Source: Candidatus Omnitrophota bacterium
Lineage (GTDB): Bacteria > Omnitrophota > Gorgyraeia > Zapsychrales > Fredricksoniimonadaceae
Direction of reading: 5' to 3'
Assembly: GCA_903860135.1 (NCBI GenBank)
Contig: CAIOPG010000007.1
Span: forward strand, 66,100-130,099
DNA: 64,000 nucleotides
Position numbers and translations under genes: made by a program. Numbering within the stretch: position 1 is the first letter of the stretch; each line of letters starts with the position of its first letter. This document shows positions 1,613 to 60,627 of the stretch, in pieces. The notes below the pieces were generated by a model that did not search any database, was not told the origin of the DNA, and saw only the letters and a list, made by a program, of their open reading frames with translations.

Positions 1613-1978
1613 ATTCGGGTTCCACCCGCAGGTTTTCTTTTTATTTAGAAATGCGGAACAAATCATAGGGTGTGAAAGATCGTATGGCCATAGCAATCAT
1701 CTTGAAGTCAGGGGCAAATATTTTCAAGCAGAAAGCTTGGTTATTCTTGTTTGTTTTTTGTTTTATTTATTGGGCATATTTGATTGCCCATACAACCATG
1801 CCGATCGTCTTTGATTCTATTGATTATGAGAATACGGGAAAGATCATTTATCAGCAGGGGGGCTGGAGTTCGACCCCGCTAAACATGTTCGGAAATGTCT
1901 GTAGATTAATCTTGCCGACAAGAGATTACGGTGTTATATTTCTGTTAATAATCATTTTTGATTATCTATGGAAACAAT

Positions 1979-9145: not shown

Positions 9146-9496
9146 GTGATCACTTTTATCACTGTCATCCATGTTATTACCTGTGTGCTTTTGATCGCTT
9201 CCATCCTGATGCAGTCGGGCAAGGGCGGCGGCCTGGCGCAGGGGTTTGATTCGGCGGAAAATCTGCTCGGTGCCCAGACCAATCAGTTCATCCTCAAGGT
9301 GACAACAACGCTTTGCGTCATCTTTTTAGCGACGTGCATCGCCACAGCGCTTTTGACATCGAAGAAACAGCGTTCGTTGCTTGACGCCATGCCTGATGCG
9401 CGCAAGGCACCGGTGACCGTGAATGTCGAGAAACTCTTTGACCAGGCTCCCGCGCAGACCATCGTGATCAATGCGGCGACCAACAGCGCCGAGTGA
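9146..9496 (+). CDS. secG: preprotein translocase subunit SecG
   Basis: Small two-TM protein with LLIASILMQSGKGGGL. GTG start after AAAGGAG. Confidence 0.85.
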   Translation: MITFITVIHVITCVLLIASILMQSGKGGGLAQGFDSAENLLGAQTNQFILKVTTTLCVIFLATCIATALLTSKKQRSLLDAMPDARKAPVTVNVEKLFDQAPAQTIVINAATNSAE

Positions 9497-11220: not shown

Positions 11221-11261
11221 TGCGGAGTGTCTGCCGGGTATGCTTAAATATGTCTTGTGAG

Positions 11262-11315
11262 AAAAGGAAAGGGCAGTCCCTGCGCTGGGGACAGATCAAT
11301 AAATTCGGGTTGTAC
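11262..11315. repeat. left copy of ~55-bp direct repeat (GGAAAGGGC + GC-rich short inverted repeat + AATAAATTCGGGTTGTAC) flanking the YhcG-like gene
   Basis: About 50/55 nt identical to 12647..12701. It contains a GTCCC..GGGAC inverted repeat. Confidence 0.8.
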
Positions 11316-11346
11316 ATTGGTCGTTTTTGGATGCCCCCCACCCATG

Positions 11347-11377
11347 CCCGCCCCACGGCGGGGGCGGGTGTTATTTT
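11347..11377 (+). terminator. rho-independent terminator-like hairpin (CCCGCCCC-acggcg-GGGGCGGG + TGTTATTTT)
   Basis: 8-bp GC stem with a 6-nt loop followed by a T-rich tract, downstream of the SBP gene. Confidence 0.6.
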
Positions 11378-11419
11378 AGTCATGACTGATAATGGCAATA
11401 TTCGAGGGTTATAGTATGT

Positions 11420-12688: not shown

Positions 12689-12701
12689 ATTCGGGTTGTA
12701 C
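12647..12701. repeat. right copy of ~55-bp direct repeat flanking the YhcG-like gene
   Basis: GAAAGGGAAAGGGACAGTCCCTGCACCGGGGACAGGGCAATAAATTCGGGTTGTAC, near-identical to 11262..11315. It overlaps the 3' end of the YhcG-like CDS and lies 18 bp upstream of the permease start. Confidence 0.8.
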
Positions 12702-12718
12702 CTAGGAATTGATTTGAT

Positions 12719-13684
12719 ATGTTCAAATACATTATAAAACGAATGTTGATCGCGCTGGGCCTGCTCCTGGTCATGAGCTGTGCGACGTTCATGCTCATGC
12801 GCCTGACGCCGGGGAATTTTCTGGATACGTTGCGCCTTGATCCGCAGATATCCAAGGACACACTGGCGTACTACAGCCAGTTGTATCAGCTCGACAAGCC
12901 GGCCTGGCAGCAGTATCTGCACTGGCTGGCGGGCCTCTTTCGCGGTGAGCTGGGGTATTCTTTTTATTATAATGTCCCGGTGGCTAAAATTATTGGCGCG
13001 CGCCTGGGCAATACCTTTATCCTGTCGCTGGCGGCATTTCTGGTGACCTGGCTGGCGGCTATTCCGCTGGGGATCTGGGCGGCCCTTCATCGCGGCAACT
13101 GGCGTGACCGCGCGATACAGTTTGCCGCCTATGCTGTCGTGTCTTTGCCTGGTTTCTTCGTGGCCATGGTCTTGCTTTATTGGGCGAGCATCACAGGTTG
13201 GCTTCCGCTGGGCGGCATGGAGAGTCCCGGTGCCGGCGATCTGTCCTGGTGGGCCCGGGGGCTCGACAGGCTCAGGCACCTGGTCATTCCGGTGACGGCC
13301 CTTTCACTGGCGTCGATCGCGTTATTGCAAAAGATCATGCGCGGCAATATGCTCGAGGAACTTGGGAAACAGTATATCTTCGCGGCCCGGGCGAGAGGGA
13401 TACCGGAGAACCGGGTCATTTACAGCCATGCCCTGCGCAATGCCATCAATCCCATGATCACCCTGCTGGGGTATGAATTCGCGGCACTTTTAAGCGGCGC
13501 GGCGCTCATGGAGATCATCACTAGCTGGCCCGGCCTTGGGAGCCTCATGCTGACAGCGGTCCGTTCCAAGGATATTTATCTGGTGATGGCAAATATGATG
13601 ATGGGTGGTATTTTGTTTATGGTCGGAAACCTTCTGGCGGATATCGCTCTTGCCAAGGCGGACCCGCGGATAAGGATCAGGTGA
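12719..13684 (+). CDS. ABC transporter permease (OppB/DppB-like)
   Basis: N-terminus MFKYIIKRMLIALGLLLVMSCATFMLMRLTPGNFLD with the permease EAA-loop region. Confidence 0.9.
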   Translation: MFKYIIKRMLIALGLLLVMSCATFMLMRLTPGNFLDTLRLDPQISKDTLAYYSQLYQLDKPAWQQYLHWLAGLFRGELGYSFYYNVPVAKIIGARLGNTFILSLAAFLVTWLAAIPLGIWAALHRGNWRDRAIQFAAYAVVSLPGFFVAMVLLYWASITGWLPLGGMESPGAGDLSWWARGLDRLRHLVIPVTALSLASIALLQKIMRGNMLEELGKQYIFAARARGIPENRVIYSHALRNAINPMITLLGYEFAALLSGAALMEIITSWPGLGSLMLTAVRSKDIYLVMANMMMGGILFMVGNLLADIALAKADPRIRIR

Positions 13685-41520: not shown

Positions 41521-42249
41521 TCACATCAAACTGATAACTTCAAGTGGAAGCTTTTTCAATTCTTCGGTTCCAAGAATTTTAATGGCCCAGCGTAAAAGCT
41601 CGAATTTATTGCGCATTTTAGGATCAAGGGTATCTGCTGTTTTGAGTTTCTTGCGTGAAAGGAAAAATATCTTGCGAAGGGCGTTGAACACGATGCGCGC
41701 TTCGCGCGGTCGCGACATTTCGCTGGTGTTGATGCTCACAAGTGCCGCATAAGCCAGTTCATTGACATAAGCATCGTAATGATCCATTTTCCTGACCAAG
41801 ATCGGCACCATGGGTTCGTAATAACGGAAGCGGTCCATGATAACCAGCGTGTGCAGGATTTCTATCTGAAGTGGAACGATGAGAGACCGTTGAAGCTGTT
41901 GTAATAATACTTTCTCAATGATGACGCGTTCCCGCGAAACCATGGCAGGGGCAAATTTCTCCCGAAAGACTTTAACCGCTGCTGCTTTTTTGTAGGCATA
42001 AAGTCCCTCATCATTGATCATGGCCAGCAAAAGATCTTTGGGTGCCGGCAACAGTTTTGTTGTATAGCCTTGGATCAGGGCTTTATCCTCAAAAAAGTCT
42101 GCTGCATTGGAAGATGGATTGGATGGGGCAGAGGAATTTTCCGGTGAAGGCTCTTGCTGGCCAGAAACTGGTGCTAGTGGAAGCAACATAAGGAAAGAAA
42201 ATAATGCCGGGAATAATTTACGCATCGGTAACCTCAAGGGACATATCAA
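41521..42249 (-). CDS. hypothetical secreted protein
   Basis: 242 aa with a signal peptide and a low-complexity S/P-rich segment, then a helical region. No confident family assignment. Overlaps the nadC 3' end by ~30 nt. Confidence 0.5.
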   Translation of the reverse strand: MICPLRLPMRKLFPALFSFLMLLPLAPVSGQQEPSPENSSAPSNPSSNAADFFEDKALIQGYTTKLLPAPKDLLLAMINDEGLYAYKKAAAVKVFREKFAPAMVSRERVIIEKVLLQQLQRSLIVPLQIEILHTLVIMDRFRYYEPMVPILVRKMDHYDAYVNELAYAALVSINTSEMSRPREARIVFNALRKIFFLSRKKLKTADTLDPKMRNKFELLRWAIKILGTEELKKLPLEVISLM

Positions 42250-44275: not shown

Positions 44276-45199
44276 ATGGGCAGTAAGGTTCTCACCGTTA
44301 CGCTGAATCCGGCGATCGATCGTATCGTGCGCATTGAGAAAATGCTTGTTGGACGGGATCATTGTTCGACGGCGGCGATGGCTTTGGCCGGAGGCAAAGG
44401 GGTTAACGCGGCGCGTGCTTTGTGTGCCCTTGAGGTTCCTGTGCAAGCCACAGGGTTATGTGGCGGTGTGGCAGGGGATTTGCTAACAGCACTGTTAACA
44501 CAGGAAGGCTTGCCGCACGCTTTCGTCCGCATCGCCGGAGCAACCCGTATCAATACGACGATCATGGATCGTGCAGGAGCCGTGACGCGGGTCATTGAAA
44601 CAGGACCGAGGGTGACAGCGGGGGAACAGCGGACATTTATGGTGCAGTTATTGCAACAGGCTAAAGCGTGTGAGGCCGTTCTTTTCTGCGGAAGACTGCC
44701 GCCGGGGATAAGCGGGGCAGCGTTGGTGCGCATGATCGCGGCGGTGAAGCAGAAAGTGTCTTTGGTCGCTGTGGACACATCCGGGCTGGCACTTAAGGCG
44801 GTGTTAAAGGCCGGTGTGGACATCATCAAGCCCAACCGTGCCGAGGCGGAGGAAGTTCTCGGCTGGCACCTGACGTCGGAGTCCAGGGTTGCGCGGGCGC
44901 TCGATGCCTTTTTAAACCACGGGATAAAAAATGTTTTGATTTCGCTGGGGCAGGATGGGCTGGCGGCTTCCAACGGGCAGGAAATGCTCTGGGTGCGTGT
45001 GCCGCCGGTCAAGGGCGGGCATGCGGTGGGGTGTGGCGACGCGGCACTGGCGGGGTTTGTGGCCGGGCATTTGGCGGGGAAACCTTTTGCGGCTTGTGTT
45101 GACCAAGCAGCGGCATGCGGGACGGCCAACATGTTCGCGGTGATCCCCGGGGGGATCAGCAGGAATATCATCAGGAAACTGGGGCTAAAGAAATACTGA
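44276..45199 (+). CDS. fruK: 1-phosphofructokinase / PfkB-family sugar kinase
   Basis: MGSKVLTVTLNPAIDRIV..., GG.GKGVN, and a C-terminal DT.GAGD-like motif GCGDAALAGFVAG. Confidence 0.85.
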   Translation: MGSKVLTVTLNPAIDRIVRIEKMLVGRDHCSTAAMALAGGKGVNAARALCALEVPVQATGLCGGVAGDLLTALLTQEGLPHAFVRIAGATRINTTIMDRAGAVTRVIETGPRVTAGEQRTFMVQLLQQAKACEAVLFCGRLPPGISGAALVRMIAAVKQKVSLVAVDTSGLALKAVLKAGVDIIKPNRAEAEEVLGWHLTSESRVARALDAFLNHGIKNVLISLGQDGLAASNGQEMLWVRVPPVKGGHAVGCGDAALAGFVAGHLAGKPFAACVDQAAACGTANMFAVIPGGISRNIIRKLGLKKY

Positions 45200-45213
45200 T
45201 CAAAGGAGCAGTT

Positions 45214-45876
45214 ATGGCGCTGGAACATGAAGAACGCATCATCAAACTCAAACAGCTCGACAATTTGAACAGCCAGGAAATGCGTGCCCTTGTTCAGGAA
45301 GGTGCGAAGCATTTCAAGGAGTCCTGGGTCAAGCTGGCCCAGGCGCTTTACGGCGTGCACCGTGACAAGCTGTACGAATACTGGGGCTATGAGAAGTTCG
45401 AGCTTTATGTCGAGAAAGAGGTCGGGATCAAGAAGCCGATGGCGCTTAAACTGCTTAAGACGTATGCCTTTGTTGAGGAGCAGGAGCCGCAATGCCTGCG
45501 GGCTGAATTTTTTACGGAAAAAGACGCCGGCACCATCCCGGAGTTTGAGGCGGTGAATCTGTTACGCATGGCGCGTGCCAACAAAGACCTTACAAAAAAG
45601 GATTATCAGGAAGTCCGGCGGCAGGTGATCGATGATGGTCGCGACGCGTCGCTGGTGCGCAAAGACCTGACGGCCATGATCAAGGAACGCAAGCAGGTCG
45701 ATCCTGACGCGGAGCGCGAAGAACGCAATGCGGCGGCGGTACGCCGATTCCTGAACGCGATCCGTTCCTTCCGCAAGGATGCCGAGACGCTCAAGCTCCT
45801 CCCGGCAGCGATATTAAAGAAGGCCGAAGAATTATTCCAGGAACTTGAATCGGAAATTGATATTGAGAAAGGTTAA
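45214..45876 (+). CDS. hypothetical charged helical protein
   Basis: 220 aa from MALEHEERIIKLKQ, preceded by AAAGGAG. No family recognised. Immediately followed by an exonuclease gene with 1-nt spacing. Confidence 0.55.
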   Translation: MALEHEERIIKLKQLDNLNSQEMRALVQEGAKHFKESWVKLAQALYGVHRDKLYEYWGYEKFELYVEKEVGIKKPMALKLLKTYAFVEEQEPQCLRAEFFTEKDAGTIPEFEAVNLLRMARANKDLTKKDYQEVRRQVIDDGRDASLVRKDLTAMIKERKQVDPDAEREERNAAAVRRFLNAIRSFRKDAETLKLLPAAILKKAEELFQELESEIDIEKG

Positions 45877-47308: not shown

Positions 47309-47905
47309 ATGAAAAGAATAATTGTTGTTTTTGCGGGATTTTTCGCGCTGGCAATGTCCGGCTGTTCTACTCAAGTGATCCGCAAGGATGTTGCTGAAAT
47401 AACCGATCTTTCCGGTCACTGGAATGATACAGATGCGCGCCTTGTAGCTGAGGAGATGGTCAGGGATTGTGTGGCTGGACTGTGGGTTGGAAATTTCAAC
47501 AAAGAAAAAGGCCGTGATCCTGTTGTGATCGTCGGCACGGTGGTCAACCGCAGCCATGAACATATCAATGCTGACGTGTTTGTTCAGGACCTCGAGATGT
47601 CCCTGGTCAACGCCGGCAAGGTCAAGTTTGTGGCTTCGAAGACCGAGCGCGGCGAGCTCCGTGAGGAACGTGCGGATCAGCAGTTGAATGCGGCGGTTCC
47701 GACACGCGCGCAGATGATCAGTGAAACCGGGGCAGATTTTATGCTCCAGGGGACGATCAATTCTGTCAAGGATGAGACCAAGGGGCAGTATGCGATCATG
47801 TTCCAGTCAAATCTGGAGCTCATCAACTTGACGACGAACGAAAAGGTTTGGATTGGCCAGAAAAAGATCAAGAAGCTCGTAAAACGCTCTCAGTATTCCC
47901 TGTAG
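47309..47905 (+). CDS. LpoB-like lipoprotein (COG3417, penicillin-binding protein activator-like)
   Basis: Lipobox AMSGCST. VVIVGTVVNRSHEHINADVFVQDLEMSLVNAGKVKFVAS resembles the LpoB/COG3417 core. Confidence 0.55.
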   Translation: MKRIIVVFAGFFALAMSGCSTQVIRKDVAEITDLSGHWNDTDARLVAEEMVRDCVAGLWVGNFNKEKGRDPVVIVGTVVNRSHEHINADVFVQDLEMSLVNAGKVKFVASKTERGELREERADQQLNAAVPTRAQMISETGADFMLQGTINSVKDETKGQYAIMFQSNLELINLTTNEKVWIGQKKIKKLVKRSQYSL

Positions 47906-47907
47906 TC

Positions 47908-49269
47908 ATGATACTGTCACGTGTGATTGCATTAAGGAACGCCCTTGGGCGTTCCTTTCTTATTGTTGTCGCCACCTTTCTTCTTTCTTCTTGTGCGGCG
48001 ACGGGGCGGCCACGGTTGCAGGTAGAGGTCGGCGGGCTTGTGGCTGCTGGCGACATTCAAGGGGCGGCCGGAAAGATCGCCGCGCCTGGGGCACGTTACG
48101 GGTCGGGCAATGATGTTCTTTATCAGCTTGACCGCGCCCTGATCCTGCAGATGGTCGGACGTTACAAGGAAAGTGCGGTTTCATTTGAAAAGGCCAAGGC
48201 ACGCACGGAAGAGCTTTATACCCGGTCTCTCCTGAATGAAGCATCGACTTGGTTGGTCAATGATGCCCGTGCGCCTTACAGACCACCGGCTTACGAGCGT
48301 GCGTTGATGAATGTTTTCCAGTCGTTTAATTATGTTGTGTCCGGTGATATATCCGAGGCGCTGGTCGAGGCACGCGACCTGGATGTGAAGTTTCCTGTTG
48401 ACGGAACCGGCGATATCAGGAAGTCGCGCGGCTTTGAGGACAACGGTTTTGCCCGTCTTGTTTCAGGAATGCTTTATGAGACCGCGGGAGAAGCCGCTAC
48501 GGGTGATGCCCTGATTTCTTATAAGCAGGCACTGGAGTTGTATGATGCCTACTATGCCGGGCAATATGTGCCGCGTATGCTTCAGGAAAGCTTGCTACGT
48601 CTGGCGGCGGCTACCGGGGATGATGACCTTTCCATTTATCGTTCGCGTTTTAGTGGATTGCGTACGGGAATACCCGTCGGTAAAGCTGTTGTTTACCTGA
48701 TCGAACCTGTAGGGTTTTCGCCTGTCAAGGAGTCCGGTTCATTGCCGATCCCGGTGCAGATGGACTTGATCGCCCAGGTATCATTTCCGTTCTTTGTAAA
48801 GCGCCAATACAATGTCCGTGCTTCGCGCTTTGTGTTTGAACGGAGTGATGGGGTTGCATGGCATATTCCTACGGAGATGGGAGTTGATATCGAGGATCTG
48901 GCCTTGAGGGACATGGAGTGGCGCAAGGCCGGTGTTATCGCCAAGGCTCTGGCGCGCCCGGCACTCAAGTATATGGTGGAAGCCAATCAAAAAGATGTGA
49001 TTGAAAAAAGAAGCGGCCCTTTGGCGGCGGGACTGTTTGGCATCCTGAGCAGTATCTACAACATTTACACCGAACAGGCCGATGTGCGTAGCTGGCAGTC
49101 CTTGCCCGGGCAGATCCGCGTGGCCCGCGCGCTCGTTGCGCCGGGATATTACCGCGTCAGGGTTGACGATCTTGACAGGTCCGGTGCGCTTGTTGGTTCC
49201 CTCGCGCAGGGCGAGCGCGAATTCATCGCCGGGAAAACATATTTTATTATAATGCGTTCGGCTCGCTGA
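47908..49269 (+). CDS. hypothetical lipoprotein (COG3014-like, often neighbours LpoB-like genes)
   Basis: Lipobox FLLSSCAATG. 453 aa with no catalytic motif recognised. Confidence 0.5.
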   Translation: MILSRVIALRNALGRSFLIVVATFLLSSCAATGRPRLQVEVGGLVAAGDIQGAAGKIAAPGARYGSGNDVLYQLDRALILQMVGRYKESAVSFEKAKARTEELYTRSLLNEASTWLVNDARAPYRPPAYERALMNVFQSFNYVVSGDISEALVEARDLDVKFPVDGTGDIRKSRGFEDNGFARLVSGMLYETAGEAATGDALISYKQALELYDAYYAGQYVPRMLQESLLRLAAATGDDDLSIYRSRFSGLRTGIPVGKAVVYLIEPVGFSPVKESGSLPIPVQMDLIAQVSFPFFVKRQYNVRASRFVFERSDGVAWHIPTEMGVDIEDLALRDMEWRKAGVIAKALARPALKYMVEANQKDVIEKRSGPLAAGLFGILSSIYNIYTEQADVRSWQSLPGQIRVARALVAPGYYRVRVDDLDRSGALVGSLAQGEREFIAGKTYFIIMRSAR

Positions 49270-49596: not shown

Positions 49597-49989
49597 ATGC
49601 TCATGAAAATTATCATTGTGGATGATTCCCAGCTTGACCGCAAACTTCTCTCGCGGTCGCTGGTGAACTGCGGTGTCAAGAACGAGATCCTCCAAGCGGA
49701 GAATGCTGAGGCGGCGATGCCTCTTATTATCGCCAATCGGGGTTATATTGCGCTCATGTTCCTCGATTATCAGATGCCGCAGATGACCGGGGTGGAATTG
49801 ATGGAGGGTCTTGTCAAGGTGCCTTCGACAGCAGATATACCGATCATCATGGTGACAGCCTCTGCTTCCGAGGATAGCCGGACTGCGGCCTATAAAGTGA
49901 ATCCGAATCTTGTCGGGTATTTGATAAAGCCGTTTAAGCCTGATCAGCTCCTATCGCTGATTCGTCCATACGTGAAGATCAATGACTGA
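49597..49989 (+). CDS. single-domain response regulator (REC)
   Basis: IIIVDDS, the phospho-acceptor context MFLDYQMPQMTG, the conserved T of VTAS, and the K of IKP. Confidence 0.85.
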   Translation: MLMKIIIVDDSQLDRKLLSRSLVNCGVKNEILQAENAEAAMPLIIANRGYIALMFLDYQMPQMTGVELMEGLVKVPSTADIPIIMVTASASEDSRTAAYKVNPNLVGYLIKPFKPDQLLSLIRPYVKIND

Positions 49990-50566
49990 ATCAAGGATAG
50001 ATCCTGTCGGTTTTTATGATCAGGCGCGGCTGCTGTGCACCGCTGTTCAAAAAATGATCCACCTTAAGGGCGGGTATGGGTTTGCCGCTGAGCCTGACAT
50101 CCTCGAGAAGAGGATCGTGCAGTTCAATCAGCGGATGCGTGTGGACGGACTTTCGAAGTTTGGTTCCCGCACGGTCTTTTCCGCTGTGAAGTTCTATGCG
50201 GGGGTCGATGAACTTGACCGTGATGCGCCGCTGGGTGTTATGATCATTTTTATTGAAATAGACCAGCTGTCGCGACTTTTCTGGAGTTTTGATTATCCGC
50301 GCCTTGATGAGGAGGATGACGCAGCGATCCTTGACGGCTGTGGTACGCTTGCCAACTTGATTGCGGGGTGTTTTGTTAAGGAAATTCGTGATGCGGGGTA
50401 TGTGCATTTGCAAATGTCTCATTTTGAAAATCATATCAATACGGCCATTAACGGGATCAACTTTATGCCAAACCAAGAAACAAAATACGAGATCCGTTTC
50501 AAGTTTCAGGGCAACCGCCGTATTACGGCAGAATTGAGCATGGGGCATATACCCAGGGCTGTTTGA
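49982..50566 (+). CDS. CheX-like domain protein (divergent; predicted catalytic Glu absent)
   Basis: DGCGTLANLIAGCF aligns to the CheC/CheX motif D..GEL.N.I.G, with Thr in the Glu position. Flanked by two REC genes. Confidence 0.45.
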   Translation: MTESRIDPVGFYDQARLLCTAVQKMIHLKGGYGFAAEPDILEKRIVQFNQRMRVDGLSKFGSRTVFSAVKFYAGVDELDRDAPLGVMIIFIEIDQLSRLFWSFDYPRLDEEDDAAILDGCGTLANLIAGCFVKEIRDAGYVHLQMSHFENHINTAINGINFMPNQETKYEIRFKFQGNRRITAELSMGHIPRAV

Positions 50567-50576
50567 GAAAAATACT

Positions 50577-50933
50577 ATGCCTAAAACTATCCTGATCGTT
50601 GATGATGACCGCACCCTTGTTCATGTTTTGGAGAAATTCCTGAGGGAAGCGGGTTATAGCACGCTAACGGCCCATGACGGCGGGGAGGCTCTTGAGAAAG
50701 TTTCCACCGCCCACCCGGATCTTATTCTGCTGGACATCCAGATACCCAAGCTCCACGGTTATTCCTTCTTGTTTGAGATGCGCAAGATCGAGGGGGCTGG
50801 AGCCATCCCGGTCATTATTCTTACAGCATCAACGACGATGGCAGATATGTTCATGGCCGAAGGGGTTAAGGAATACCTTATCAAGCCCTGTTCTTCCCGG
50901 GATGTCTTGGGAAAGATCAGTAAATACATTTAA
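50577..50933 (+). CDS. single-domain response regulator (REC)
   Basis: ILIVDDD, LILLDIQIPKLHG, ILTAS, IKP. Confidence 0.88.
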   Translation: MPKTILIVDDDRTLVHVLEKFLREAGYSTLTAHDGGEALEKVSTAHPDLILLDIQIPKLHGYSFLFEMRKIEGAGAIPVIILTASTTMADMFMAEGVKEYLIKPCSSRDVLGKISKYI

Positions 50934-53204: not shown

Positions 53205-53657
53205 ATGGGAAAATATCTGTTCCTAGCACTAAGGTTGCTGATTGCCGCAGTATTCCTTGTTTCCGGGTGGGAAAAGGCTGTCAATCCGCCGGCGAACTTT
53301 CTTTATATCCTGCAGGCGTATGATATTCTTCCGGCGGTATTGGAGCGGTTGGTGTCTGTTGTTTTCCCTTGGATTGAACTTGCCACGGGTGTGTTGCTGG
53401 CGCTGGGGTTATGGCTGCGCGTGGGACTTCTTGTATCTGCCTGTGTGTCCGGGTCGTTCATTCTGATCGTCAGTCAGGCGATCGTGCGTCATTTGCCGAT
53501 CGATAATTGCGGTTGTTTCGGTAATCTGGTGCATCTGCCTTTGCGCGGGGTCATTATTCTGGATCTGGCCATTTTTACAACAACCCTGCTCCTTTCATGG
53601 AATCTGATCGCGGCCCGTCGTTTCAGCCTGGATAATGCTTGCGAACCGCGTGCATGA
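53205..53657 (+). CDS. DoxX/MauE-family membrane protein
   Basis: Four TM helices with LIAAVFLVSGWEKAVNP. Often paired with DsbA-like proteins. Confidence 0.65.
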   Translation: MGKYLFLALRLLIAAVFLVSGWEKAVNPPANFLYILQAYDILPAVLERLVSVVFPWIELATGVLLALGLWLRVGLLVSACVSGSFILIVSQAIVRHLPIDNCGCFGNLVHLPLRGVIILDLAIFTTTLLLSWNLIAARRFSLDNACEPRA

Positions 53658-55156
53658 GAATGTTTTTGTTTGTGGCCGCAACTTTTCTGGGTTTTATGAT
53701 GAATCAGCCATTCTTATTCTCTGATGATAATGTTATGCCTGCCGCGCTGGCCGGGACCTGGTATCCGGGCACACCACAGGAATTAAGCACCCTGCTCGAT
53801 GGTTTTTCATCATCCGTCAGCTTTCCGGCAGAGACGCCTTCGGGGGGTGACATCGCCGTTATTGTAGCGCCGCACGCGGGGTATCCTTTTTCGGGTGGTG
53901 TGGCGGCGTACGGGTTTAAGGCGGTCAAGGCCAGAAAGATAGCAACGGTCGTTATTCTCGCGCCGACACATCATTTTTCTTTCAAGGGAGCTTCGGTGTG
54001 GGCGAAGGGGGCTTTCACCACGCCACTGGGGTCGGTGGCTGTGGATGAGGTCTTTGCGGCGCAGCTTCTTACGGCCGATAAGGTATTCATCACCCGTAAA
54101 GATATCTTCAAAGGTGTCCCGGGTCGTCCGGAAAACTCGGTCGAGACGCAGATCCCTTTTGTTCAGCAGACATTCCCCGGGGCGAAGATCGTGCCTGTGA
54201 TCCTCGGGTATCCGCCGGATGCGCGCACTGCGGCGGCCGTGGCGCAGGCGTTGGCGCAGGTCGTGGGCGGGCGTGATGATGTGCTGGTTGTCGTGAGCGT
54301 GGATCAGTCGCATTTTCATCCTTTAGACCAGGCCCGTGTGATTGACCGTGCAGGCTTGGCGGCGATAGAGAAGTTTGATATGGAGGCATTATGGGCAGGC
54401 CATGCTGCCGGGCGGATGGAAGTGGACGGTTTTCATGTGGTGGGGACTGCGATGGCTTATGCTCGGGCGCTCGGATATGGCCGTGCCAAGGTCCTCAGGT
54501 ATGCGACTTCCGCTGACGCGACAGGTGACACTAAAAGCGTCGTGGGGTATGCGTCGGTGATTTTTTATAGGGATGCGGCATCTGCTGTGAAGGCAGTGGT
54601 TGCGCCTTTGTCGGCTTCGCAGAAAGACCGGCTCGTGCGCATGGCACGCCGTACCCTCGACATGTTTGTGCGGACAAGGAAGCGCCGCGCGGTCGATGAC
54701 AAAGACCCGCGAATGGCTGTGCCCGAAGGCGCGTTTGTGACCTTGAAGAAAGCCGGTGTTTTACGCGGATGCATCGGACATATTATTGGCGAGGGACCTT
54801 TAGCCCTCACGGTGCGCGACATGGCCATTGCGGCGGCCAGCGAGGATCCACGCTTCGCGCCGGTGTCGGTCAGCGAGCTTGCGGATATCAGCCTTGAGAT
54901 ATCTGTTTTATCAACCCCGCGAGAGATAAAAAGTGCGCAGGAGGTGGTGTTGGGCCGGCATGGCGTGATCGTCAGACGTGGTGCGCGGGGAGGTGTGTTT
55001 TTACCTCAGGTCGCCGATGAAACCGGTTGGAGCCGGGAGCGGTTCTTGTCTGAACTTTGCGCACAGAAGGCGGGGCTTTCGCCGGATTGCTGGAAAGATC
55101 CAGCAACCAAAATAGAAGTTTTCACCGCCGATGTTTTTGGCGAAACAAAGGAGTGA
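53639..55156 (+). CDS. fusion of Memo1-like (AmmeMemoRadiSam system protein B) and AMMECR1 (protein A) domains
   Basis: N-terminal half: VIVAPHAGYPFSGGVAAYGF...VVILAPTHH...SVDQSHF is MEMO1-family. C-terminal half: GAFVTLKKAGVLRGCIGHI...EDPRFAPVS is the AMMECR1 motif. Confidence 0.8.
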   Translation: MRTACMRMFLFVAATFLGFMMNQPFLFSDDNVMPAALAGTWYPGTPQELSTLLDGFSSSVSFPAETPSGGDIAVIVAPHAGYPFSGGVAAYGFKAVKARKIATVVILAPTHHFSFKGASVWAKGAFTTPLGSVAVDEVFAAQLLTADKVFITRKDIFKGVPGRPENSVETQIPFVQQTFPGAKIVPVILGYPPDARTAAAVAQALAQVVGGRDDVLVVVSVDQSHFHPLDQARVIDRAGLAAIEKFDMEALWAGHAAGRMEVDGFHVVGTAMAYARALGYGRAKVLRYATSADATGDTKSVVGYASVIFYRDAASAVKAVVAPLSASQKDRLVRMARRTLDMFVRTRKRRAVDDKDPRMAVPEGAFVTLKKAGVLRGCIGHIIGEGPLALTVRDMAIAAASEDPRFAPVSVSELADISLEISVLSTPREIKSAQEVVLGRHGVIVRRGARGGVFLPQVADETGWSRERFLSELCAQKAGLSPDCWKDPATKIEVFTADVFGETKE

Positions 55157-55157
55157 T

Positions 55158-55409
55158 ATGGGCAGTCTCCCGTTAAAGAGCAGGAAAGAAAGACAAAAAG
55201 AACGTCGGGAAGAGAAGGCACCGCGCAAGCCGCTGCTGTCCGACCGCCAGAGAAAGGTCGTCCTGGCCGTCCTTGTTATTGCTGTTTGTGCGGTGCCTGT
55301 CATTGACATCTTGCGTTGCAAGGCGGCTTGTATGAAACGCGTCAAAACGCCTTATCCCGAGATCGCTTGCCGTTATGAATGCCCCTGGCCCTGGCAGAAG
55401 TCCGAATAG
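55158..55409 (+). CDS. hypothetical small basic protein with one TM segment and Cys-rich tail
   Basis: MGSLPLKSRKERQKERREEK...VVLAVLVIAVCAVPVID...CKAACMK...CRYECPW. No homology recognised; may not be expressed. Confidence 0.3.
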   Translation: MGSLPLKSRKERQKERREEKAPRKPLLSDRQRKVVLAVLVIAVCAVPVIDILRCKAACMKRVKTPYPEIACRYECPWPWQKSE

Positions 55410-55423
55410 TGCCGGAGTCGTGC

Positions 55424-56536
55424 ATGAAAATGTCAGCCGAGGCGCGTATTATCTGGATCAGCACCCTGATCATCATGTCGGTTGGATTGGTGACGCTTTA
55501 TAGTGCTTCTTTTGATAATGTCCGTGTTTCCCGCCAGGTTTTTTTCGATCAGCTGGTTTGTGGGGCTTTGGCTCTGACGGTGATGTTTGTTTTGAGCCGC
55601 ATTCATTACAGGATGTTCTTTGATGCCGCCTATCCTTTGTATGTCATCAATGTCCTTTTGCTGATCTTTGTGCTGGTTGCCGGTCGTTCTGCGCTTGGAG
55701 CCACGCGCTGGTTTAGTTTTGCGGGCATCAGTTTTCAGCCGTCGGAGCTGTCCAAGGTTGCGGTTATCCTGATGCTGGGGCGGTATTTCAGTAAACGGAA
55801 TTTAAAACTTTCTTTTGATCTGCGCAGTTCATTTTATGCGTTCGGTCGCGATCTGTGCTATCCGCTCTTTCTTATGTTGCTCAGTTTTGTATTTATTTTC
55901 AAACAGCCTGATCTGGGGACGGCGATCCTGGTATTTGGAATATTTGTGATCATGCTTTTTGCCAGCGGGATCGACTGGCGGCCGCTGGCTGGTTTTCTGG
56001 GACTATGTGCCATTGCCGTTCCTTTTGGCTGGCATTTTCTCAAGGATTATCAGCGGGATCGCCTTTTGGTATTTCTTAATCCGAATATAGATCCGCTGGG
56101 GGCAGGGTATACGATCATTCAGTCGCGCATTGCGATCGGTTCGGGGCAGGTCTTTGGCAAGGGCTGGCTGGCCGGAACGCAGAACCAGCTTAATTTTCTT
56201 CCCGAGCGCCATACGGATTTTATTTTTGCGGTGATCGGCGAGGAGTGGGGCTTTGCCGGGACGACCTTTCTTCTGGGGTGTTATTTCATGCTGATCTATA
56301 CAGGGATACAGATCGCGGGAAGGGTCAAGGACAAGTTCGGGCATCTTGTGGCCATAGGCATCGTTTCGATCCTGACCCTGCAGGTGGTTATTAACATGAG
56401 CATGACCATGGGCTTGAGCCCGGTGGTGGGGATCACGCTGCCTTTTGTGAGTTACGGACGGACTTCTTTTTTGGTCTTTGCCATCATGATGGGGTTCTTG
56501 CTCAACCTTTCCCAACAGCGCCGTTCAAATGCGTGA
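55424..56536 (+). CDS. SEDS family protein (RodA/FtsW/SpoVE) peptidoglycan glycosyltransferase
   Basis: Ten TM helices. ...HTDFIFAVIGEEWGFAG... and a C-terminal SxxRxxxxxL-like region. Confidence 0.88.
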   Translation: MKMSAEARIIWISTLIIMSVGLVTLYSASFDNVRVSRQVFFDQLVCGALALTVMFVLSRIHYRMFFDAAYPLYVINVLLLIFVLVAGRSALGATRWFSFAGISFQPSELSKVAVILMLGRYFSKRNLKLSFDLRSSFYAFGRDLCYPLFLMLLSFVFIFKQPDLGTAILVFGIFVIMLFASGIDWRPLAGFLGLCAIAVPFGWHFLKDYQRDRLLVFLNPNIDPLGAGYTIIQSRIAIGSGQVFGKGWLAGTQNQLNFLPERHTDFIFAVIGEEWGFAGTTFLLGCYFMLIYTGIQIAGRVKDKFGHLVAIGIVSILTLQVVINMSMTMGLSPVVGITLPFVSYGRTSFLVFAIMMGFLLNLSQQRRSNA

Positions 56537-56604: not shown

Positions 56605-57096
56605 ATGGCATTTGAACGCACGACGCATAAGAATCTCGGCGAACTCCTCATGGAGCGCGGTGTCATCACGCGCCCCCAGCTTGAGGCTGTGGTTGCCTAT
56701 CAGTTAAAAAATAAAGGCGTACTTTTTGGCGAAGCCCTGATCTGTCTCGGTAGTGCGACAGAGGAAGACATTGCCCAAGCGCTCACCTGCCAGTACGGAT
56801 TTCCTTATCTGCGTCTTTCCAATCACAAGATCGACCGGCAGGTTTTGACGGTCATCCCAGCGCATCTATGTGAGCAGTTTTGCCTTATTCCCGTTCACAG
56901 GCGCGGGGATGTCTTGACATTGGCCATGTCTAATCCTTTGAATAGCAGGGCTTTGCAGGACGTAGAATTACTGTCGGGATGTACGGCCCAGGCTTTTGTG
57001 AGTACGGCCAGTGATATTCGTAATGCCATAAGAAAATATTATGCCACCGTGCTTGACGCGGGGAATGGATATGGCGATGCCGACGTTCCTGCATGA
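56605..57096 (+). CDS. stand-alone T2SSE_N / MshEN domain protein (GspE N-terminal domain)
   Basis: LGELLMERGVITRPQLEAVVAYQ...ATEEDIAQALTCQYGFPYLRLSNHKIDRQVLTVIPAHLCEQFCLIPV...DVLTLAMSNP is the GspE_N/MshEN fold signature. Confidence 0.75.
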   Translation: MAFERTTHKNLGELLMERGVITRPQLEAVVAYQLKNKGVLFGEALICLGSATEEDIAQALTCQYGFPYLRLSNHKIDRQVLTVIPAHLCEQFCLIPVHRRGDVLTLAMSNPLNSRALQDVELLSGCTAQAFVSTASDIRNAIRKYYATVLDAGNGYGDADVPA

Positions 57097-57544
57097 CCGT
57101 CATTTGATAGGAGATGTCCTGGTTTTCCGGAAGCTGATCACGGTTACTCAGCTGGCACATGCGTTGTTGGTTCAGCGGTCTGAAAAAGGCGTTTTTATTG
57201 GAGAGATCCTGATGCGCCTTGGGTATGCCGGCGAGATGGATGTCGTGACGGCGCTGGTGGTGCAGTATAATCTTCCGTATATTGCGGTGATGCGTTACCA
57301 TGTTGAGCCTTGTATCCTTGGGCTTATACCTTCGGATCTGGCTCGGCGTAAACGTCTCGTGCCGCTCGACAGGATCGGTAATGTTTTGAGTGTTGTGGTG
57401 CCGCACCCTCCCGATGCGGCCCTGCGCCGTGAGGTTGAGGCGTTGACGCATTGCCGGATGGCAACTTTTATTTCCACCAGATCCGAGATCGATCTGGCCA
57501 TCGAACATTTTTATCCCGTACCCGATCATGGCGGCATTAAATAA
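57065..57544 (+). CDS. second stand-alone T2SSE_N / MshEN domain protein (paralog)
   Basis: IGDVLVFRKLITVTQLAHALLVQ...GEMDVVTALVVQYNLPYIAVMRYHVEPCILGLIPSDLARRKRLVPLDRIGNVLSVVVPHP has the same architecture as the upstream gene. Start ambiguous (57065 or 57071). Confidence 0.7.
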   Translation: MDMAMPTFLHDRHLIGDVLVFRKLITVTQLAHALLVQRSEKGVFIGEILMRLGYAGEMDVVTALVVQYNLPYIAVMRYHVEPCILGLIPSDLARRKRLVPLDRIGNVLSVVVPHPPDAALRREVEALTHCRMATFISTRSEIDLAIEHFYPVPDHGGIK

Positions 57545-57575
57545 GGGCGGGCGTTCATATGACACAGGAGGCATC

Positions 57576-58604
57576 ATGAAAAGAAGTTTTTTGGGGTTGA
57601 TGAGTATACTGCTTGTATTGTGCGGTAACAGTTTTGCCGAGGTCAAATCCCCGGATCCGGCGGCTTTTGATTACACGCTCCAAAGGCTTCATCAGAGCGT
57701 GGCGGAACTTTCCAAAGAAAATCAGGAACTCAAAGCGCGTAATACAGGTGTGCGCGTCAAGGTTGGGGCCCTTACGGCCAAGCTGACCGCTATGCAAGAG
57801 GATGTCTATCAGCTTAAGAAAAGGAAGGCAGTTCAAACGGTCAGTCCCAAGGGGGTGAGCGCGCTCGACTCTCTCAAGGCGCAGGTCATCCGTTTGAACC
57901 AAGAGTTAACAAGGATCGGTCAGGAATCGGTGGCTGTTGATGCCCAGATGAAACTTGTTGAAGAAGCAGAACGGGCTTATGGTCAGAAGATCAGCAAGCT
58001 TGAAGCGGATATTAAGGAGGTGCCCTCAGACGGTGCGCTTTCAGTTGAATGGCAAAAAGCTGTCACCGACCTTCAGGTCGAAAGGGATAAATTACGTCAA
58101 GAAGCGCACGAAGCGACCGTGCGTTATAACGCGGCCAAAACACAGTGGGTTAACCTTGATGCGGCCATCACCCATGAGCCTAAACAATTTCAGACGATTA
58201 GAGCAGAACAGGAATCTATCGCCCGGGAAGCGGCAGCCATAGAAGCTGAATTGCCCAAATTAAAAGCTAATATGGCTGAAGCGCAGGCGGATGTTCAGCA
58301 CCTCGATCTTGAAGATAACAGTGATCTTAAAGTGGGGCGTATGGAAAGCGAGATCAAGGCGATCACGGAGCGTAATCGTAGCCTTGAACTGGAACTGCTT
58401 ACCCTCCAGAAGGTCAAGGATGGCGAGTTCAAGCGCGTGCAAGACGAGCGTAGCGCGCTAGAAGTCAAATACAAAGGTGAAATTGATGCCTTAACGGTGC
58501 GCAATACCGCGTTGCGGCAGGAATTGGACGGGCTGCGCAAGGCGATGGTCGCCTTGGATAAGAAGAAATCCGTATTGGAGTCGGATGCGTACACGCCCCG
58601 TTGA
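57576..58604 (+). CDS. secreted long coiled-coil protein, hypothetical
   Basis: Signal peptide MKRSFLGLMSILLVLCGNSFA, then ~300 aa of heptad-like Q/E/K/L-rich sequence. Confidence 0.6.
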   Translation: MKRSFLGLMSILLVLCGNSFAEVKSPDPAAFDYTLQRLHQSVAELSKENQELKARNTGVRVKVGALTAKLTAMQEDVYQLKKRKAVQTVSPKGVSALDSLKAQVIRLNQELTRIGQESVAVDAQMKLVEEAERAYGQKISKLEADIKEVPSDGALSVEWQKAVTDLQVERDKLRQEAHEATVRYNAAKTQWVNLDAAITHEPKQFQTIRAEQESIAREAAAIEAELPKLKANMAEAQADVQHLDLEDNSDLKVGRMESEIKAITERNRSLELELLTLQKVKDGEFKRVQDERSALEVKYKGEIDALTVRNTALRQELDGLRKAMVALDKKKSVLESDAYTPR

Positions 58605-58675
58605 TCTTTACGGATTTTAGTCGTTTAAAATTTCCGGATGATATGTTAGAATGAGCAAACTGTTAAGGAGTGTTT

Positions 58676-59059
58676 ATGGGGAAGAAAGCTTTCCATTTCG
58701 TTGAGATCATGATTGTTGCTGTGATCATTGTTCTTTTTGTCGCGATCATTATCCCGAGTGCCTTGAAGTCCGGTATCGAGACCAATGATACGCTGGCCAA
58801 GGGGAAGTTGCGGCAGCTCTCTGCGGTGGCAGAAGCTTATGCCACTACGCATACGGGCAATTATCCTTTGGAGATGACTGCGCTGAGCGGGACCACGCCA
58901 CCGTTGATCAGAGAAAATCCGTGCGGGTTGGCGTTCTCAGGCTTCAGATATGCTTGTGAGTTTACGGCAATTTCCTATGTGTTTACCGCGACGCCGGTTA
59001 CAGCGGGCAAATCAGGGACAGCAATTTATACGATAACGACCGGCGGTGTTTTGCAATAA
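58676..59059 (+). CDS. prepilin-type (type IV pilin / pseudopilin-like) protein with non-canonical leader
   Basis: MGKKA|FHFVEIMIVAVIIVLFVAIIIPS: a Glu at +5 and a hydrophobic helix as in class III signal peptides, but Ala (not Gly) at -1. Confidence 0.6.
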   Translation: MGKKAFHFVEIMIVAVIIVLFVAIIIPSALKSGIETNDTLAKGKLRQLSAVAEAYATTHTGNYPLEMTALSGTTPPLIRENPCGLAFSGFRYACEFTAISYVFTATPVTAGKSGTAIYTITTGGVLQ

Positions 59060-59142
59060 GGTCATAGACGGACATCTGTGCGAAGGGTGCCGTTGGCGCC
59101 TTCCGGTCGAAATAATAATTTCATCATATTTAAGGAGTAAGC

Positions 59143-60627
59143 GTGTCCAGAGAGATCCTCATTCATGTGGCTGATGGCGAACGTCGCGTTGCTATCGTTG
59201 AAAACAAGCACCTTGATGATTTTTACATTGAAATTGACCGGCATCGGTCAACCCTCGGGAATATTTACAAGGGCAGGGTCGAGTCCATCCTTCCGTCGAT
59301 CAATGGGGCTTTTGTTAATATCGGTCAGGAGCGCAATGGGTTTTTGTATTTGACCGACGCGGATCATCCGTATGTTCAGGACTTTGACAACCTCAATGGT
59401 CCAGGTGCTGCCGCACAGGGTTTTTTTGACAAGTTGTTGAATCGTAAGCCGAAGTCGTCCTCCGTTGCTGTAGCGGTTGATACCGAGGGAAATGCGCCGG
59501 CTCCAGCCTCCTCACCTGAAGCGGTTGAAGTTCTTAAGCCTGCCGAGAGCGCGTCGGTCCCTGCTAAGGTCGAGGCGTCGAACGCTGGCGGACAGGGTCG
59601 TGGACGGGGTCGTTTCGGGCGTCAGCAGGGCGGTGCTAAAGAACGACCTGTATCGTTGAAAGTCGGGCAGGAAGTGCTTGTTCAGGTTGAAAAAGACCCC
59701 TTCGGTACTAAAGGTGCCCGTTTGACAACTCACCTTTCTATTCCGGGAAGGTTCGTTGTTTATATGCCGTATGACAAGCACATTGGTGTTTCGCAAAAGA
59801 TTGAGTCTATTGAAGAGCGCCAGCGGTTGCGTGACATTATTAAGGAATGTGATTTTGCCAAGGATGGTGGTTTTATCATCCGCACCGTTTCTTTCGGGCA
59901 GGAAAAGGAAGAGCTTTTGAATGATGCGCGCTTTGTTCATGAGAAATGGCAGAAGGTCGTCAAACTCGCCAAAGAGAAAAAAGCACCCGCGATCATTTAT
60001 CAGGAAGGCGACATCATCTGGAAAGTCGTTCGTGATTTCTTCCGCAAGGAAGTGACCGGTGTCCATATTGATTCCAAGGAAGAGCATGAACAACTGGTGA
60101 AGTATGTCGAGTCGCTGGTCGGGAAACCCGCGCTTAAAAAGGTGCATTACTACGGTGGCGAAGCCTCGATCTTTGAGGCGCATAAGATTTCGGCCGAGCT
60201 TGACCGGATCTACGACCAAAAGGTTTTTCTTAAGACAGGTGCTTATCTTGTCATCGAACCCACCGAAGGGGTCACGGTCATCGATGTCAACAGCGGCCGT
60301 TATAAGACATCCGCGTCGCCGGAAGATGCGGCATTCAATGTCAATATCGAGGCTGCGCCCGAGATCGCGCGCCAGTTGCGCCTGAGGGATCTGGGCGGCA
60401 TTATTGTTATTGATTTCATTGATATGTCCCGGGAAGATCACAAACGTAAGGTTCTTGACGTGCTCAAGGCCGAGCTCGCGCGCGACCTTTCCAAAACCGA
60501 AGTGAACAAGATCTCAAGCCTGGGGCTTGTGGAGATGACCCGTGAGCGCGCCGGCAAGACCATTGAATCGTTGAAGTTCGCCGAGTGCCCTTATTGTCAC
60601 GGCCGCGGCAGGGTCAAGATCGACTAG
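59143..60627 (+). CDS. rng: ribonuclease G / E family (Rne/Rng catalytic domain)
   Basis: S1 domain, DNase I-like and Zn-link regions. N-terminus MSREILIHVADGERRVAIVENKHLDDFYIE...NIYKGRVESILPSINGAFVNIG. The inserted Gly/Arg-rich segment is unusual. GTG start after AAGGAG. Confidence 0.9.
   Translation: MSREILIHVADGERRVAIVENKHLDDFYIEIDRHRSTLGNIYKGRVESILPSINGAFVNIGQERNGFLYLTDADHPYVQDFDNLNGPGAAAQGFFDKLLNRKPKSSSVAVAVDTEGNAPAPASSPEAVEVLKPAESASVPAKVEASNAGGQGRGRGRFGRQQGGAKERPVSLKVGQEVLVQVEKDPFGTKGARLTTHLSIPGRFVVYMPYDKHIGVSQKIESIEERQRLRDIIKECDFAKDGGFIIRTVSFGQEKEELLNDARFVHEKWQKVVKLAKEKKAPAIIYQEGDIIWKVVRDFFRKEVTGVHIDSKEEHEQLVKYVESLVGKPALKKVHYYGGEASIFEAHKISAELDRIYDQKVFLKTGAYLVIEPTEGVTVIDVNSGRYKTSASPEDAAFNVNIEAAPEIARQLRLRDLGGIIVIDFIDMSREDHKRKVLDVLKAELARDLSKTEVNKISSLGLVEMTRERAGKTIESLKFAECPYCHGRGRVKID

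Follow-up and report, generated by a model that had tools for sequence, protein, structure and literature searches.

Described type IVa pilus (T4aP) gene clusters comprise PilB, PilC, PilA and PilMNOPQ (PMC10066038). In Omnitrophota, T4aP genes have been reported from nearly all genomes, in 'at least one' copy and often together with tight adherence (Tad) loci, and have been linked to host attachment (Seymour et al., 2023, PMC10066038). Here we analysed a 64-kb stretch of DNA from an uncultured Candidatus Omnitrophota bacterium (hereafter the window; all positions are those of the window, which belongs to a parent contig of 202 kb), in which four genes at 56605-59059 encode two MshEN domain proteins, a coiled-coil protein and a pilin-like protein. 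We found that this locus is a reductively evolved T4aP operon in which accessory genes persist. The four genes are orthologous (46-74% identity) to four members of the T4aP cluster in the nearest intact relative, and occupy the same interval between rodA and the RNase G gene, rng. Unlike a T4aP cluster, however, the window locus has no assembly ATPase, platform, alignment complex or secretin, and its pilin lacks the glycine at position -1 (Gly-1).

The closest described counterparts of the two MshEN proteins, which we call MshEN-a and MshEN-b, are domains of larger pilus ATPases. With the MshEN domain of Vibrio cholerae MshE (5HTL; PMC5013675), MshEN-a shares the two-subdomain fold and a recognisable tandem 24-residue motif; it differs in being free-standing rather than fused to a T2SSE ATPase, in the replacement of the position-1 Arg, and in a motif spacer of 6 rather than 5 residues in most orthologs. 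Thermus thermophilus PilF has three tandem GSPII/MshEN domains (6F8L, 9G1W, 8PDK; PMC11731258, PMC12002112), and, of all PDB entries, its GSPII-A and GSPII-C domains match the MshEN-a sequence best. Both PilF and the intact Omnitrophota operon bring several MshEN modules to one pilus system, two fused to ATPases and up to two free in the latter, but the extra Omnitrophota modules are separate polypeptides. GSPII-A of PilF is a non-binder despite its near-consensus motif, and remains so when the motif is repaired (PMC12002112). Further structural neighbours of the MshEN-a model are the EpsE-N1/EpsL complex (2BH1, 4PHT) and the Xanthomonas PilB-N/PilZ complex (7LKO), in which the C-terminal subdomain binds partners; it is in this subdomain that MshEN-a has changed at otherwise invariant residues in the window lineage. 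The cyanobacterial receptor CdgR for cyclic diguanylate (c-di-GMP) was considered as a stand-alone MshEN analogue and dropped, the literature giving it as a ComFB-domain protein.

Four co-oriented open reading frames (ORFs) on the + strand fill 56605-59059: MshEN-a (56605..57096, 163 aa), MshEN-b (57077..57544), the Sec-exported coiled-coil protein (57576..58604, 342 aa) and the pilin-derived protein (58676..59059, 127 aa). They are flanked on the same strand by rodA (55424..56536), which encodes a SEDS (shape, elongation, division and sporulation) glycosyltransferase (Pfam FTSW_RODA_SPOVE 2e-97, TIGR02210 1e-116), and by rng (59143..60627; Pfam RNase_E_G 4e-94, TIGR00757 2e-136). An initial interpretation made from the letters of the stretch (the sequence-only reading) had claimed that no ATPase, secretin or platform gene of a type II secretion system (T2SS) or type IV pilus (T4P) lies nearby, and our scans agree. 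No ATPase, platform, secretin, PilMNO or prepilin peptidase was found among the ~60 ORFs scanned across the whole window, which are housekeeping genes, or among gene calls of the parent contig for the 10 kb past the 3' end of the window. The pairing of an assembly ATPase (PilB/GspE) with a platform (PilC/GspF), by which a T4aP or T2SS would be recognised, is thus missing at the locus, in the window and in the 10 kb downstream, as is the combination of an alignment complex, PilMNO(P), and a secretin, PilQ/GspD, in the window. Scans for promoters and terminators gave counts within ~1.5 standard deviations of shuffled controls, and the evidence for operon structure consists of Shine-Dalgarno motifs.

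The missing genes occupy this very interval in other Omnitrophota. (Related loci are labelled L001 and so on.) In the intact operon, the order after rodA is MshEN-a, PilB1, PilB2, (MshEN-b), PilC, the coiled-coil gene, the pilin gene or genes, PilM, PilN and PilO. Homologs of MshEN-a led to five intact loci. In L004-L009 and L013 this operon lies directly 3' of the rodA-linked MshEN-a; both of its PilB-type ATPases carry their own MshEN and T2SSE domains, its coiled-coil gene encodes ~345 aa, and it has one or two N_methyl pilins. PilMNO were seen in the intact relatives L013, L016-L023, L175 and L177. The far end could be followed in L096 and L101, where pilins, PilM, PilN and PilO are succeeded by a PilP-like protein (125-135 aa), the PilQ secretin (Secretin E=7e-52), RNase G and L21; these two were the only informative loci from an RNase G-anchored metagenome scan, which returned mostly distant phyla. 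A prepilin peptidase is not part of the operon in intact relatives.

This design extends across the phylum. When a MshEN-a alignment was run against one representative genome per GTDB species, 80 Omnitrophota loci were obtained; in 79 of them PilB1 comes after MshEN-a (local blastp classification), and the sole exception, JBAXBM01, is reduced. In most of these loci rodA lies directly 5' of MshEN-a, and in about a third a gap of 1.5-3.5 kb separates them, so that rodA is a conserved left boundary of the operon as rng is the right boundary of its ancestral form. Throughout L004-L009, L013, L016-L094 and L175-L178, tandem PilB paralogs are preceded by the free MshEN-a, the first gene of the ancestral operon, and often followed by the free MshEN-b (31/57 species). 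MshEN-a often overlaps the start of PilB1 by ATGA and is under the same constraint as the ATPases (ratio of nonsynonymous to synonymous substitution rates, dN/dS, 0-0.05). A gene of 1.1-3.4 kb occupies the slot between PilC and the pilin in nearly all species. We found no description, in the literature searched, of two PilB paralogs bracketed by free MshEN proteins.

The interval itself seems to be older than the operon within it. In distant bacteria (loci L103-L174, metagenome contigs, other phyla), an mreB...pbp2-rodA cluster followed by RNase G within 1-2 kb is common, and for this reason the Omnitrophota pilus operon appears to occupy an old rodA-rng junction. The surroundings of rodA vary within the phylum, as seen in the window (53639-55409 and 55424-56536) and in loci L008 and L036-L094: Omnitrophota outside the window clade retain mreBCD-pbp2-rodA directly 5' of the pilus operon. 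In the window clade, rodA is detached from mreB-mreC-mreD-pbp2, and upstream of it stand a gene in which Memo and AMMECR1 are fused and a small ORF (77-87 aa) that is conserved.

Comparison with L013, the nearest intact relative, places the differences at three junctions on the + strand. At the first (57042..57091), ~50 nt replace the 3.57 kb of L013 that hold PilB1 and PilB2, as seen by blastn (W55301-57041 matching L013 8688-10437 and W57092-57516 matching L013 14007-14431, where W is the window) and in the junction alignment; these nucleotides hold the tail of MshEN-a together with the Shine-Dalgarno motif and start of MshEN-b. The second (57545..57575) has 31 nt in place of the 1.2 kb PilC/GspF gene of L013. 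At the third (59060..59142), 83 nt replace further pilins, PilM, PilN and PilO, as well as the PilP-like gene and PilQ when the comparison is made with L096 and L101; one pilin is left in the window, against two in L013. About 10 kb of DNA has been removed by clean deletions in the window lineage. Identities to the L013 orthologs by blastp are 74% for MshEN-a, which in L013 is followed by PilB1, 69% for MshEN-b, 46% for the coiled-coil protein, 62% for the pilin and 87% for rodA.

The reduced layout recurs in L001-L003, which are 99.96-100% identical to the window, and in the more diverged L014 (synonymous divergence, dS, 0.1-0.3) and L179 (dS 0.6-1.2). An assembly artefact was considered and rejected, because diverged strains, and independently made assemblies from ENA, NCBI and Logan, have the four-gene arrangement with identical junctions (L001-L003, L014, L179). 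A sister sublineage (L010-L012 and L015, from two NCBI metagenome assemblies and one metagenome-assembled genome, MAG) has rodA, MshEN-a, the coiled-coil gene, the pilin gene and RNase G, MshEN-b having been lost as well. The junction between pilin and rng is contiguous between the window and L011 and is also common to L179; the distal deletion therefore predates the split between the window lineage and this sister sublineage. Of the Omnitrophota T4aP operon between rodA and rng, a few clean whole-gene deletions have left these four accessory genes. With both ATPases, the platform, the extra pilins, the alignment complex and the secretin gone, the window locus is unable to assemble a filament by itself.

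These observations bear on the sequence-only reading, which had seen in the four genes an operon of undescribed type. Under that proposal, they would form a self-contained system in which free MshEN c-di-GMP receptors regulate or anchor a pilus-like fibre, and the free MshEN proteins with their conserved half of the ligand motif, as well as the co-orientation of the secreted coiled-coil and pilin-like genes, are in keeping with it. Synteny in relatives, a check that the reading had itself suggested along with the location of pilB and pilC, speaks otherwise: with PilB1 next to MshEN-a in 79/80 species, the arrangement is limited to a small clade (1/80 species representatives and the window lineage), it derives by deletion from a normal T4aP operon, and the same four genes are ordinary operon members everywhere else. 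We therefore regard a new operon type as improbable, and the locus as a deletion derivative of the ordinary Omnitrophota operon.

Having established what was lost, we asked whether the survivors are decaying. Between the window and L014 (dS 0.1-0.3), dN/dS by the Nei-Gojobori method (NG86) was 0.055 for MshEN-a, 0.13 for MshEN-b, 0.23 for the coiled-coil protein and 0.17 for the pilin; housekeeping genes of the same locus gave 0.04 (rodA), 0.02 (RNase G) and 0.06 (Obg). Binomial tests against neutrality were significant for the survivors (P 3e-11 to 5e-4). Over the greater distance to L179, dN/dS was 0.19 for the pilin and 0.09 for the C-terminal part of the coiled-coil protein. Pairs of intact operons gave baselines of 0-0.05 for MshEN-a, 0.08-0.17 for MshEN-b, 0.21 for the coiled-coil protein and 0.05-0.16 for the pilin. 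Because these values lie in the same range, the survivors are under purifying selection of normal present-day strength and are not decaying.

Rates on the branch leading to the reduced lineages tell of an earlier episode. We applied Tajima relative-rate tests to the window or L011 against intact L013, with four outgroups. The pilin had 33-38 unique changes in the window lineage vs 1-5 in L013 (P 3e-9 to 6e-6), and MshEN-a 19-25 vs 2-4 (P about 1e-4 to 6e-4). For MshEN-b the counts were 12-18 vs 3-8 (P 0.001-0.37) and for the coiled-coil protein 27-48 vs 21-26 (P 0.005-0.9), while the controls rodA and Memo-AMMECR1 were balanced. Change was episodic and site-focused, on the branch where the machine was lost, and fell on positions that are otherwise invariant in the phylum.

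Such acceleration might be expected of functionless relics of a recent operon collapse, in which disabling mutations are still to come. The lost N_methyl signature of the pilin, the further loss of MshEN-b in the sister lineage and the variable, unconstrained tail of MshEN-a could be told in the same way. Against this, at least three diverged members of the window sublineage have the full set of four intact ORFs, and the L011 sublineage has three intact ones, across synonymous divergence of up to 0.6-1.2; dN/dS of the survivors (0.06-0.23) is far below 1 and equals the intact baselines; and derived residues common to both sublineages have been conserved since. We consider it very improbable that the four genes are relics. 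An origin as deletion remnants that retained an altered function is, in our judgement, likely.

The pilin-derived protein, whose gene follows an AAGGAG Shine-Dalgarno motif, is one of the altered survivors. Its N-terminus, MGKKA/FHFVEIMIVAVIIVLFVAIIIP... (the slash marks the cleavage site), begins with the leader MGKKA/FHFVE, and has Ala at -1 and Glu at +5, as had been noted in the sequence-only reading. The mature part would start F1-H-F-V-E5-IMIVAVIIVLFVAIIIP, with ~21 hydrophobic residues after the cleavage site, interrupted by the Glu at +5. Pilins have a short, hydrophilic leader with Gly at -1; in the window, L014 and L179 the last residue of the leader (MGKKA) is Ala instead, while the pilins of intact relatives have the canonical KKG/FTLVE. 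No match to the N-terminal methylation motif PF07963 (N_methyl) was found for the window protein at E<=0.1; the precomputed Pfam field is likewise empty for the window, L011 and P0253 pilin-like proteins, whereas all intact-locus pilins match PF07963. Matches to the NCBIfam GspG/ComGC/PilA models are sub-threshold only. The protein is nonetheless a pilin homolog, 62% identical over its full length to the canonical N_methyl pilins of L013; it also weakly matches Thermus PilA (6XXD), its F6 aligning with the mature F1. A word-indexed homology search with the pilin returned 6 relatives.

Changes in the pilin are concentrated in its N-terminal part. At 51 columns conserved to >=90% among intact species (36 species), the window protein has changed at 18 and that of L011 at 16, compared with an average of 1.2 and a maximum of 8 among intact pilins. 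Of the 18 changes in the window, fourteen are at residues 5-36 (cleavage site and helix alpha1), and seven are common with L011. The replacement of Gly-1 by Ala arose in the window sublineage and was retained in L014 and L179; L011 keeps Gly, with FEFIE. The class III signal that the sequence-only reading had wished to see in relatives is therefore present in canonical form (G/FTLVE) in intact operons and replaced by a stable Ala-1 in the window, L014 and L179. According to PMC4471445, the leader Gly does not vary among bacteria and is 'absolutely critical' for processing, and homopolymer assembly requires Glu5. Since Gly-1 is so critical and Ala stands here, the protein is probably a poorly processed or unprocessed bitopic inner-membrane protein whose pilin head is periplasmic. 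What distinguishes it is thus its remodelled N-terminal helix and the Ala at its cleavage site, with Glu+5 and the Cys pair kept.

Could the pilus motor have moved elsewhere in the genome? A search with PilB1 of L013 against a collection of 5.8 billion proteins, which includes this organism's contigs, returned its own cluster at 98% and next matches at <=81%; both 81% matches sit in standard rodA-MshEN-a-PilB1 operons of other species. In species whose rodA is 80-85% identical to that of L013, PilB1 stands at 78-81%. With rodA at 87-89% in the window and L011, a retained PilB1 ortholog should therefore head the match list, and none was found for the window lineage in this collection at the expected identity (>=81%). 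Because no such ortholog tops the list though the collection holds this organism's contigs, the comparison favours true loss of the orthologous motor over its relocation.

A different machine could still be in use. The four genes might serve a working filament: genes elsewhere in the genome would encode a T4P, T2SS or Tad machine and a prepilin peptidase for the assembly of this pilin, and the MshEN proteins would regulate the ATPase of that machine. Several properties of the pilin would suit this arrangement: Glu+5, the hydrophobic helix, the Cys pair and the globular core are retained, dN/dS is 0.17-0.19, and the coordinated changes in the N-terminal helix, conserved once made, resemble a re-fitting to a new partner. 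Omnitrophota genomes, moreover, often have more than one T4aP copy as well as Tad loci (PMC10066038). The critical leader Gly, invariant in bacteria, is nevertheless Ala (PMC4471445), the protein collection holds no PilB1 ortholog at >=81%, and no such machinery genes lie in the 74 kb around the locus. Weighing these, we think service to another machine a real possibility, though an unlikely one.

MshEN-a, by comparison, was altered in one half and left untouched in the other. That free-standing MshEN/GspE-N proteins stand here in tandem, as had been proposed from their sequences, was confirmed by profile: against Pfam MshEN (PF05157, cut-off 23.1 bits), MshEN-a scores 72 bits (E=4e-20) and MshEN-b 54 bits (E=1.5e-14). 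MshEN-a also exceeds the cut-off of 38 bits for the N-terminal 53-residue NCBIfam model c-di-GMP_motif (NF053729) with 41.8 bits. Both proteins align over ~140 residues with the PilB N-terminus in NCBIfam TIGR02538, and phmmer searches of the PDB match both, again over ~140 residues, to the N-termini of PilB, PilF and MshE; identities to PilB N-termini are only 25-35% (blastp), and the two are 35% identical paralogs of each other. The AlphaFold2 model of MshEN-a (predicted local distance difference test score 81.6) has helices H8-17, H23-35, H41-47 and H53-64 followed by a beta/alpha part, that is, the four-helix N-terminal bundle and C-terminal alpha/beta subdomain of the MshEN fold. Its best Foldseek match is 5HTL, V. 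cholerae MshE-N with c-di-GMP (template modelling score 0.82, root-mean-square deviation 2.3 A, E=6e-11), which supports the fold; next come the GSPII domains of Thermus PilF and the PilB-N-PilZ complex of Xanthomonas. MshEN-a has more than 1,600 homologs; with few exceptions these are free-standing proteins of ~149 aa encoded in Candidatus Omnitrophota MAGs and share 60-79% identity with it.

Every Gly, hydrophobic and Gln position of the tandem motif is present in MshEN-a, invariant across 20 aligned orthologs and >=90% conserved in the 79 intact species; most orthologs have a spacer of 6 residues, vs 5 in the consensus RLGxxLVxxGILxxxxLxxxLxxQ (x2). At 64 columns conserved to >=90% in these 79 species, the window protein has changed at 7 (P70R, Y74H, E75K, D98H, K99R, I100R and V128A) and L011 at 4 (P70L, E75K, K99R and I100R), intact sequences averaging 1.7 differences; E75K, K99R and I100R are common to both reduced sublineages. 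None of the window changes lies in residues 9-67, the c-di-GMP motif half, and all conserved-column changes are within the C-terminal subdomain (residues 70-128). Because the ligand-motif half stayed invariant, the pattern suggests that a sensor function is what selection preserves in MshEN-a. A role as a c-di-GMP-responsive regulatory or anchoring module is accordingly possible from its sequence, c-di-GMP being an uncertain assignment of the ligand. In related proteins the C-terminal subdomain is a docking surface for partners; by that analogy, residues 70-75 and 98-100 would be at a partner interface. A plausible reading is that PilB, PilM or PilC was the original partner of this surface and that, with the partner gone, the changes reflect its re-fitting or release.

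MshEN-b is an optional accessory whose ancestral slot lies between PilB2 and PilC; among 57 species it is present in 31 and truly absent in at least 21. It falls just under the cut-off for NF053729 (35.2 bits, cut-off 38), lacks the motif Arg and has Lys for the turn Gly of motif 1. Its identity to the free L013 MshEN-b is 69%, its PDB matches are PilB N-termini and 5HTL, and a single conserved column is altered in the window. A leftover of a deletion inside PilB was considered as its origin and rejected, the 69% identity to the free L013 protein standing against ~25-28% to PilB N-termini. Its start is most likely ATG 57077 ('MPTF...'), because this aligns with the start of the L013 ortholog; 57065 had been proposed in the sequence-only reading, and gene callers gave 57071. 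The overlap of the two MshEN reading frames is thus real, as that reading had it, but measures about 20 nt from 57077 by the L013/L014 junction alignment rather than the ~30 nt counted from 57065, and it is strain-specific. In L014 the TAA stop of MshEN-a comes 7 nt before the ATG of MshEN-b; the window has TAT there, and MshEN-a therefore reads on for eight codons. As judged from the aligned strains, this read-through tail is a scar of the deletion junction, unconstrained and variable; in the window it makes up the final ~14 codons of MshEN-a.

The remaining survivor, the coiled-coil gene, is a fast-evolving accessory of the slot between PilC and pilin in the ancestral operon. A GGAGG Shine-Dalgarno motif precedes it. 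By inspection, the protein has a Sec-type leader, MKRSFLGLMSILLVLCGNSFA/EV, and would be periplasmic; it is 46% identical to the coiled-coil protein of L013 and 57% to that of L011. Searches of Pfam and NCBIfam returned only sub-threshold generic coiled-coil matches, and the PDB no match. The Sec-type leader and the coiled-coil similarity uphold its earlier description as a secreted coiled-coil protein.

Taken together, these patterns suggest what the survivors may do now. The deletions took the motors, platform, extra pilins, alignment complex and secretin, and the accessory genes stayed. MshEN-a would be a cytoplasmic sensor or adaptor of the c-di-GMP type, its C-terminal docking surface re-fitted once the original partners were gone. 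The pilin derivative, poorly cleaved or uncleaved, would be anchored in the inner membrane and face the periplasm, where the coiled-coil protein would also be found. The survivors together would have taken on either a changed role that needs no motor or new partners. A more specific version, that the MshEN sensor, the periplasmic coiled coil, the non-cleavable pilin and, where kept, MshEN-b were exapted into a motor-independent envelope or signalling function, maybe tied to the adjacent elongasome gene rodA, is speculative and on balance rather doubtful; its corollary would be that free MshEN proteins are integral, highly constrained pilus components whose role does not strictly need the ATPases.

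Several points weigh against a remnant with an altered, motor-independent role. The inspected DNA comprises 64 kb and 10 kb of 3' gene calls from an uncultured MAG; other machinery may lie elsewhere, since Omnitrophota are reported with 'at least one' copy of T4aP and, in many cases, Tad (PMC10066038). The direction of change, loss, rests on parsimony across the sampled species. The relative-rate tests concern short proteins, and the outgroups L017 and L019 are only slightly more distant, although the clear outgroups L004 and L006 give the same result. In the pilin, Glu+5, the Cys pair and the low dN/dS are in keeping with continued assembly of the protein as a subunit. As to the sensor, the motif Arg at position 1 of MshEN-a is replaced by Asn/His in motif 1 and by Leu in motif 2, and a good motif does not guarantee binding in homologous GSPII domains (PMC12002112). 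According to Wang et al. (2016, PMC5013675), changes at Arg9, Asp12 and Gln32 from earlier tests shifted affinity <5-fold, whereas hydrophobic mutations cost >10-fold; R38G is among the changes of the non-binder XpsE.

An apparent orphan cluster of MshEN and pilin genes is thus best taken as a footprint of pilus loss and not a new system, which corrects the automatic labels 'PilB' and 'hypothetical protein'. The locus amounts to a natural experiment in which the motor is gone, MshEN-a is kept at housekeeping-level constraint, and the assembly helix of the pilin was remodelled and then frozen. The changed residues probably mark contacts between MshEN and its partner and between pilin and machine, and a role of free MshEN proteins beyond switching on a neighbouring ATPase is suggested. 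A clade without T4aP may have changed its lifestyle, given that these ultra-small bacteria, which may be predators or parasites, are believed to attach to hosts by T4aP (PMC10066038). In the literature searched we found no description of the survival and focused remodelling of MshEN-a and pilin after motor loss; this, and the phylum-wide operon design, may be new to specialists.

Several other features of the window deserve mention. Across 1-64000, the + strand carries nearly all sizeable genes, and every 2-kb bin has a positive GC skew (0.06-0.20), consistent with a long stretch of leading strand and a strong bias in gene orientation. At 1958-3411, within a polysaccharide-synthesis cluster (GT1, WecG, sugar transferase, Wzy_C), a gene for an AbiEii-type nucleotidyltransferase toxin (Pfam 8.5e-24) is overlapped by an upstream ORF that has no family match and is probably its antitoxin. 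At 9493-13684, a DUF1016/YhcG PDDEXK-nuclease gene (11420-12688) separates the solute-binding gene from the permease genes of an Opp-type ATP-binding cassette (ABC) transporter operon and looks like an insertion. A 194-aa protein without a Pfam match is encoded between two receiver-only response regulators at 49597-50933, and all related Omnitrophota contigs long enough to include the region have this triplet in synteny, 5' of the locus. Further ORFs without a Pfam match lie at 41521-42249 on the - strand (242 aa), 45115-45876 (253 aa) and 47848-49269 (473 aa), the last of which has LpoB and SPOR-domain genes next to it and keeps its synteny in relatives.

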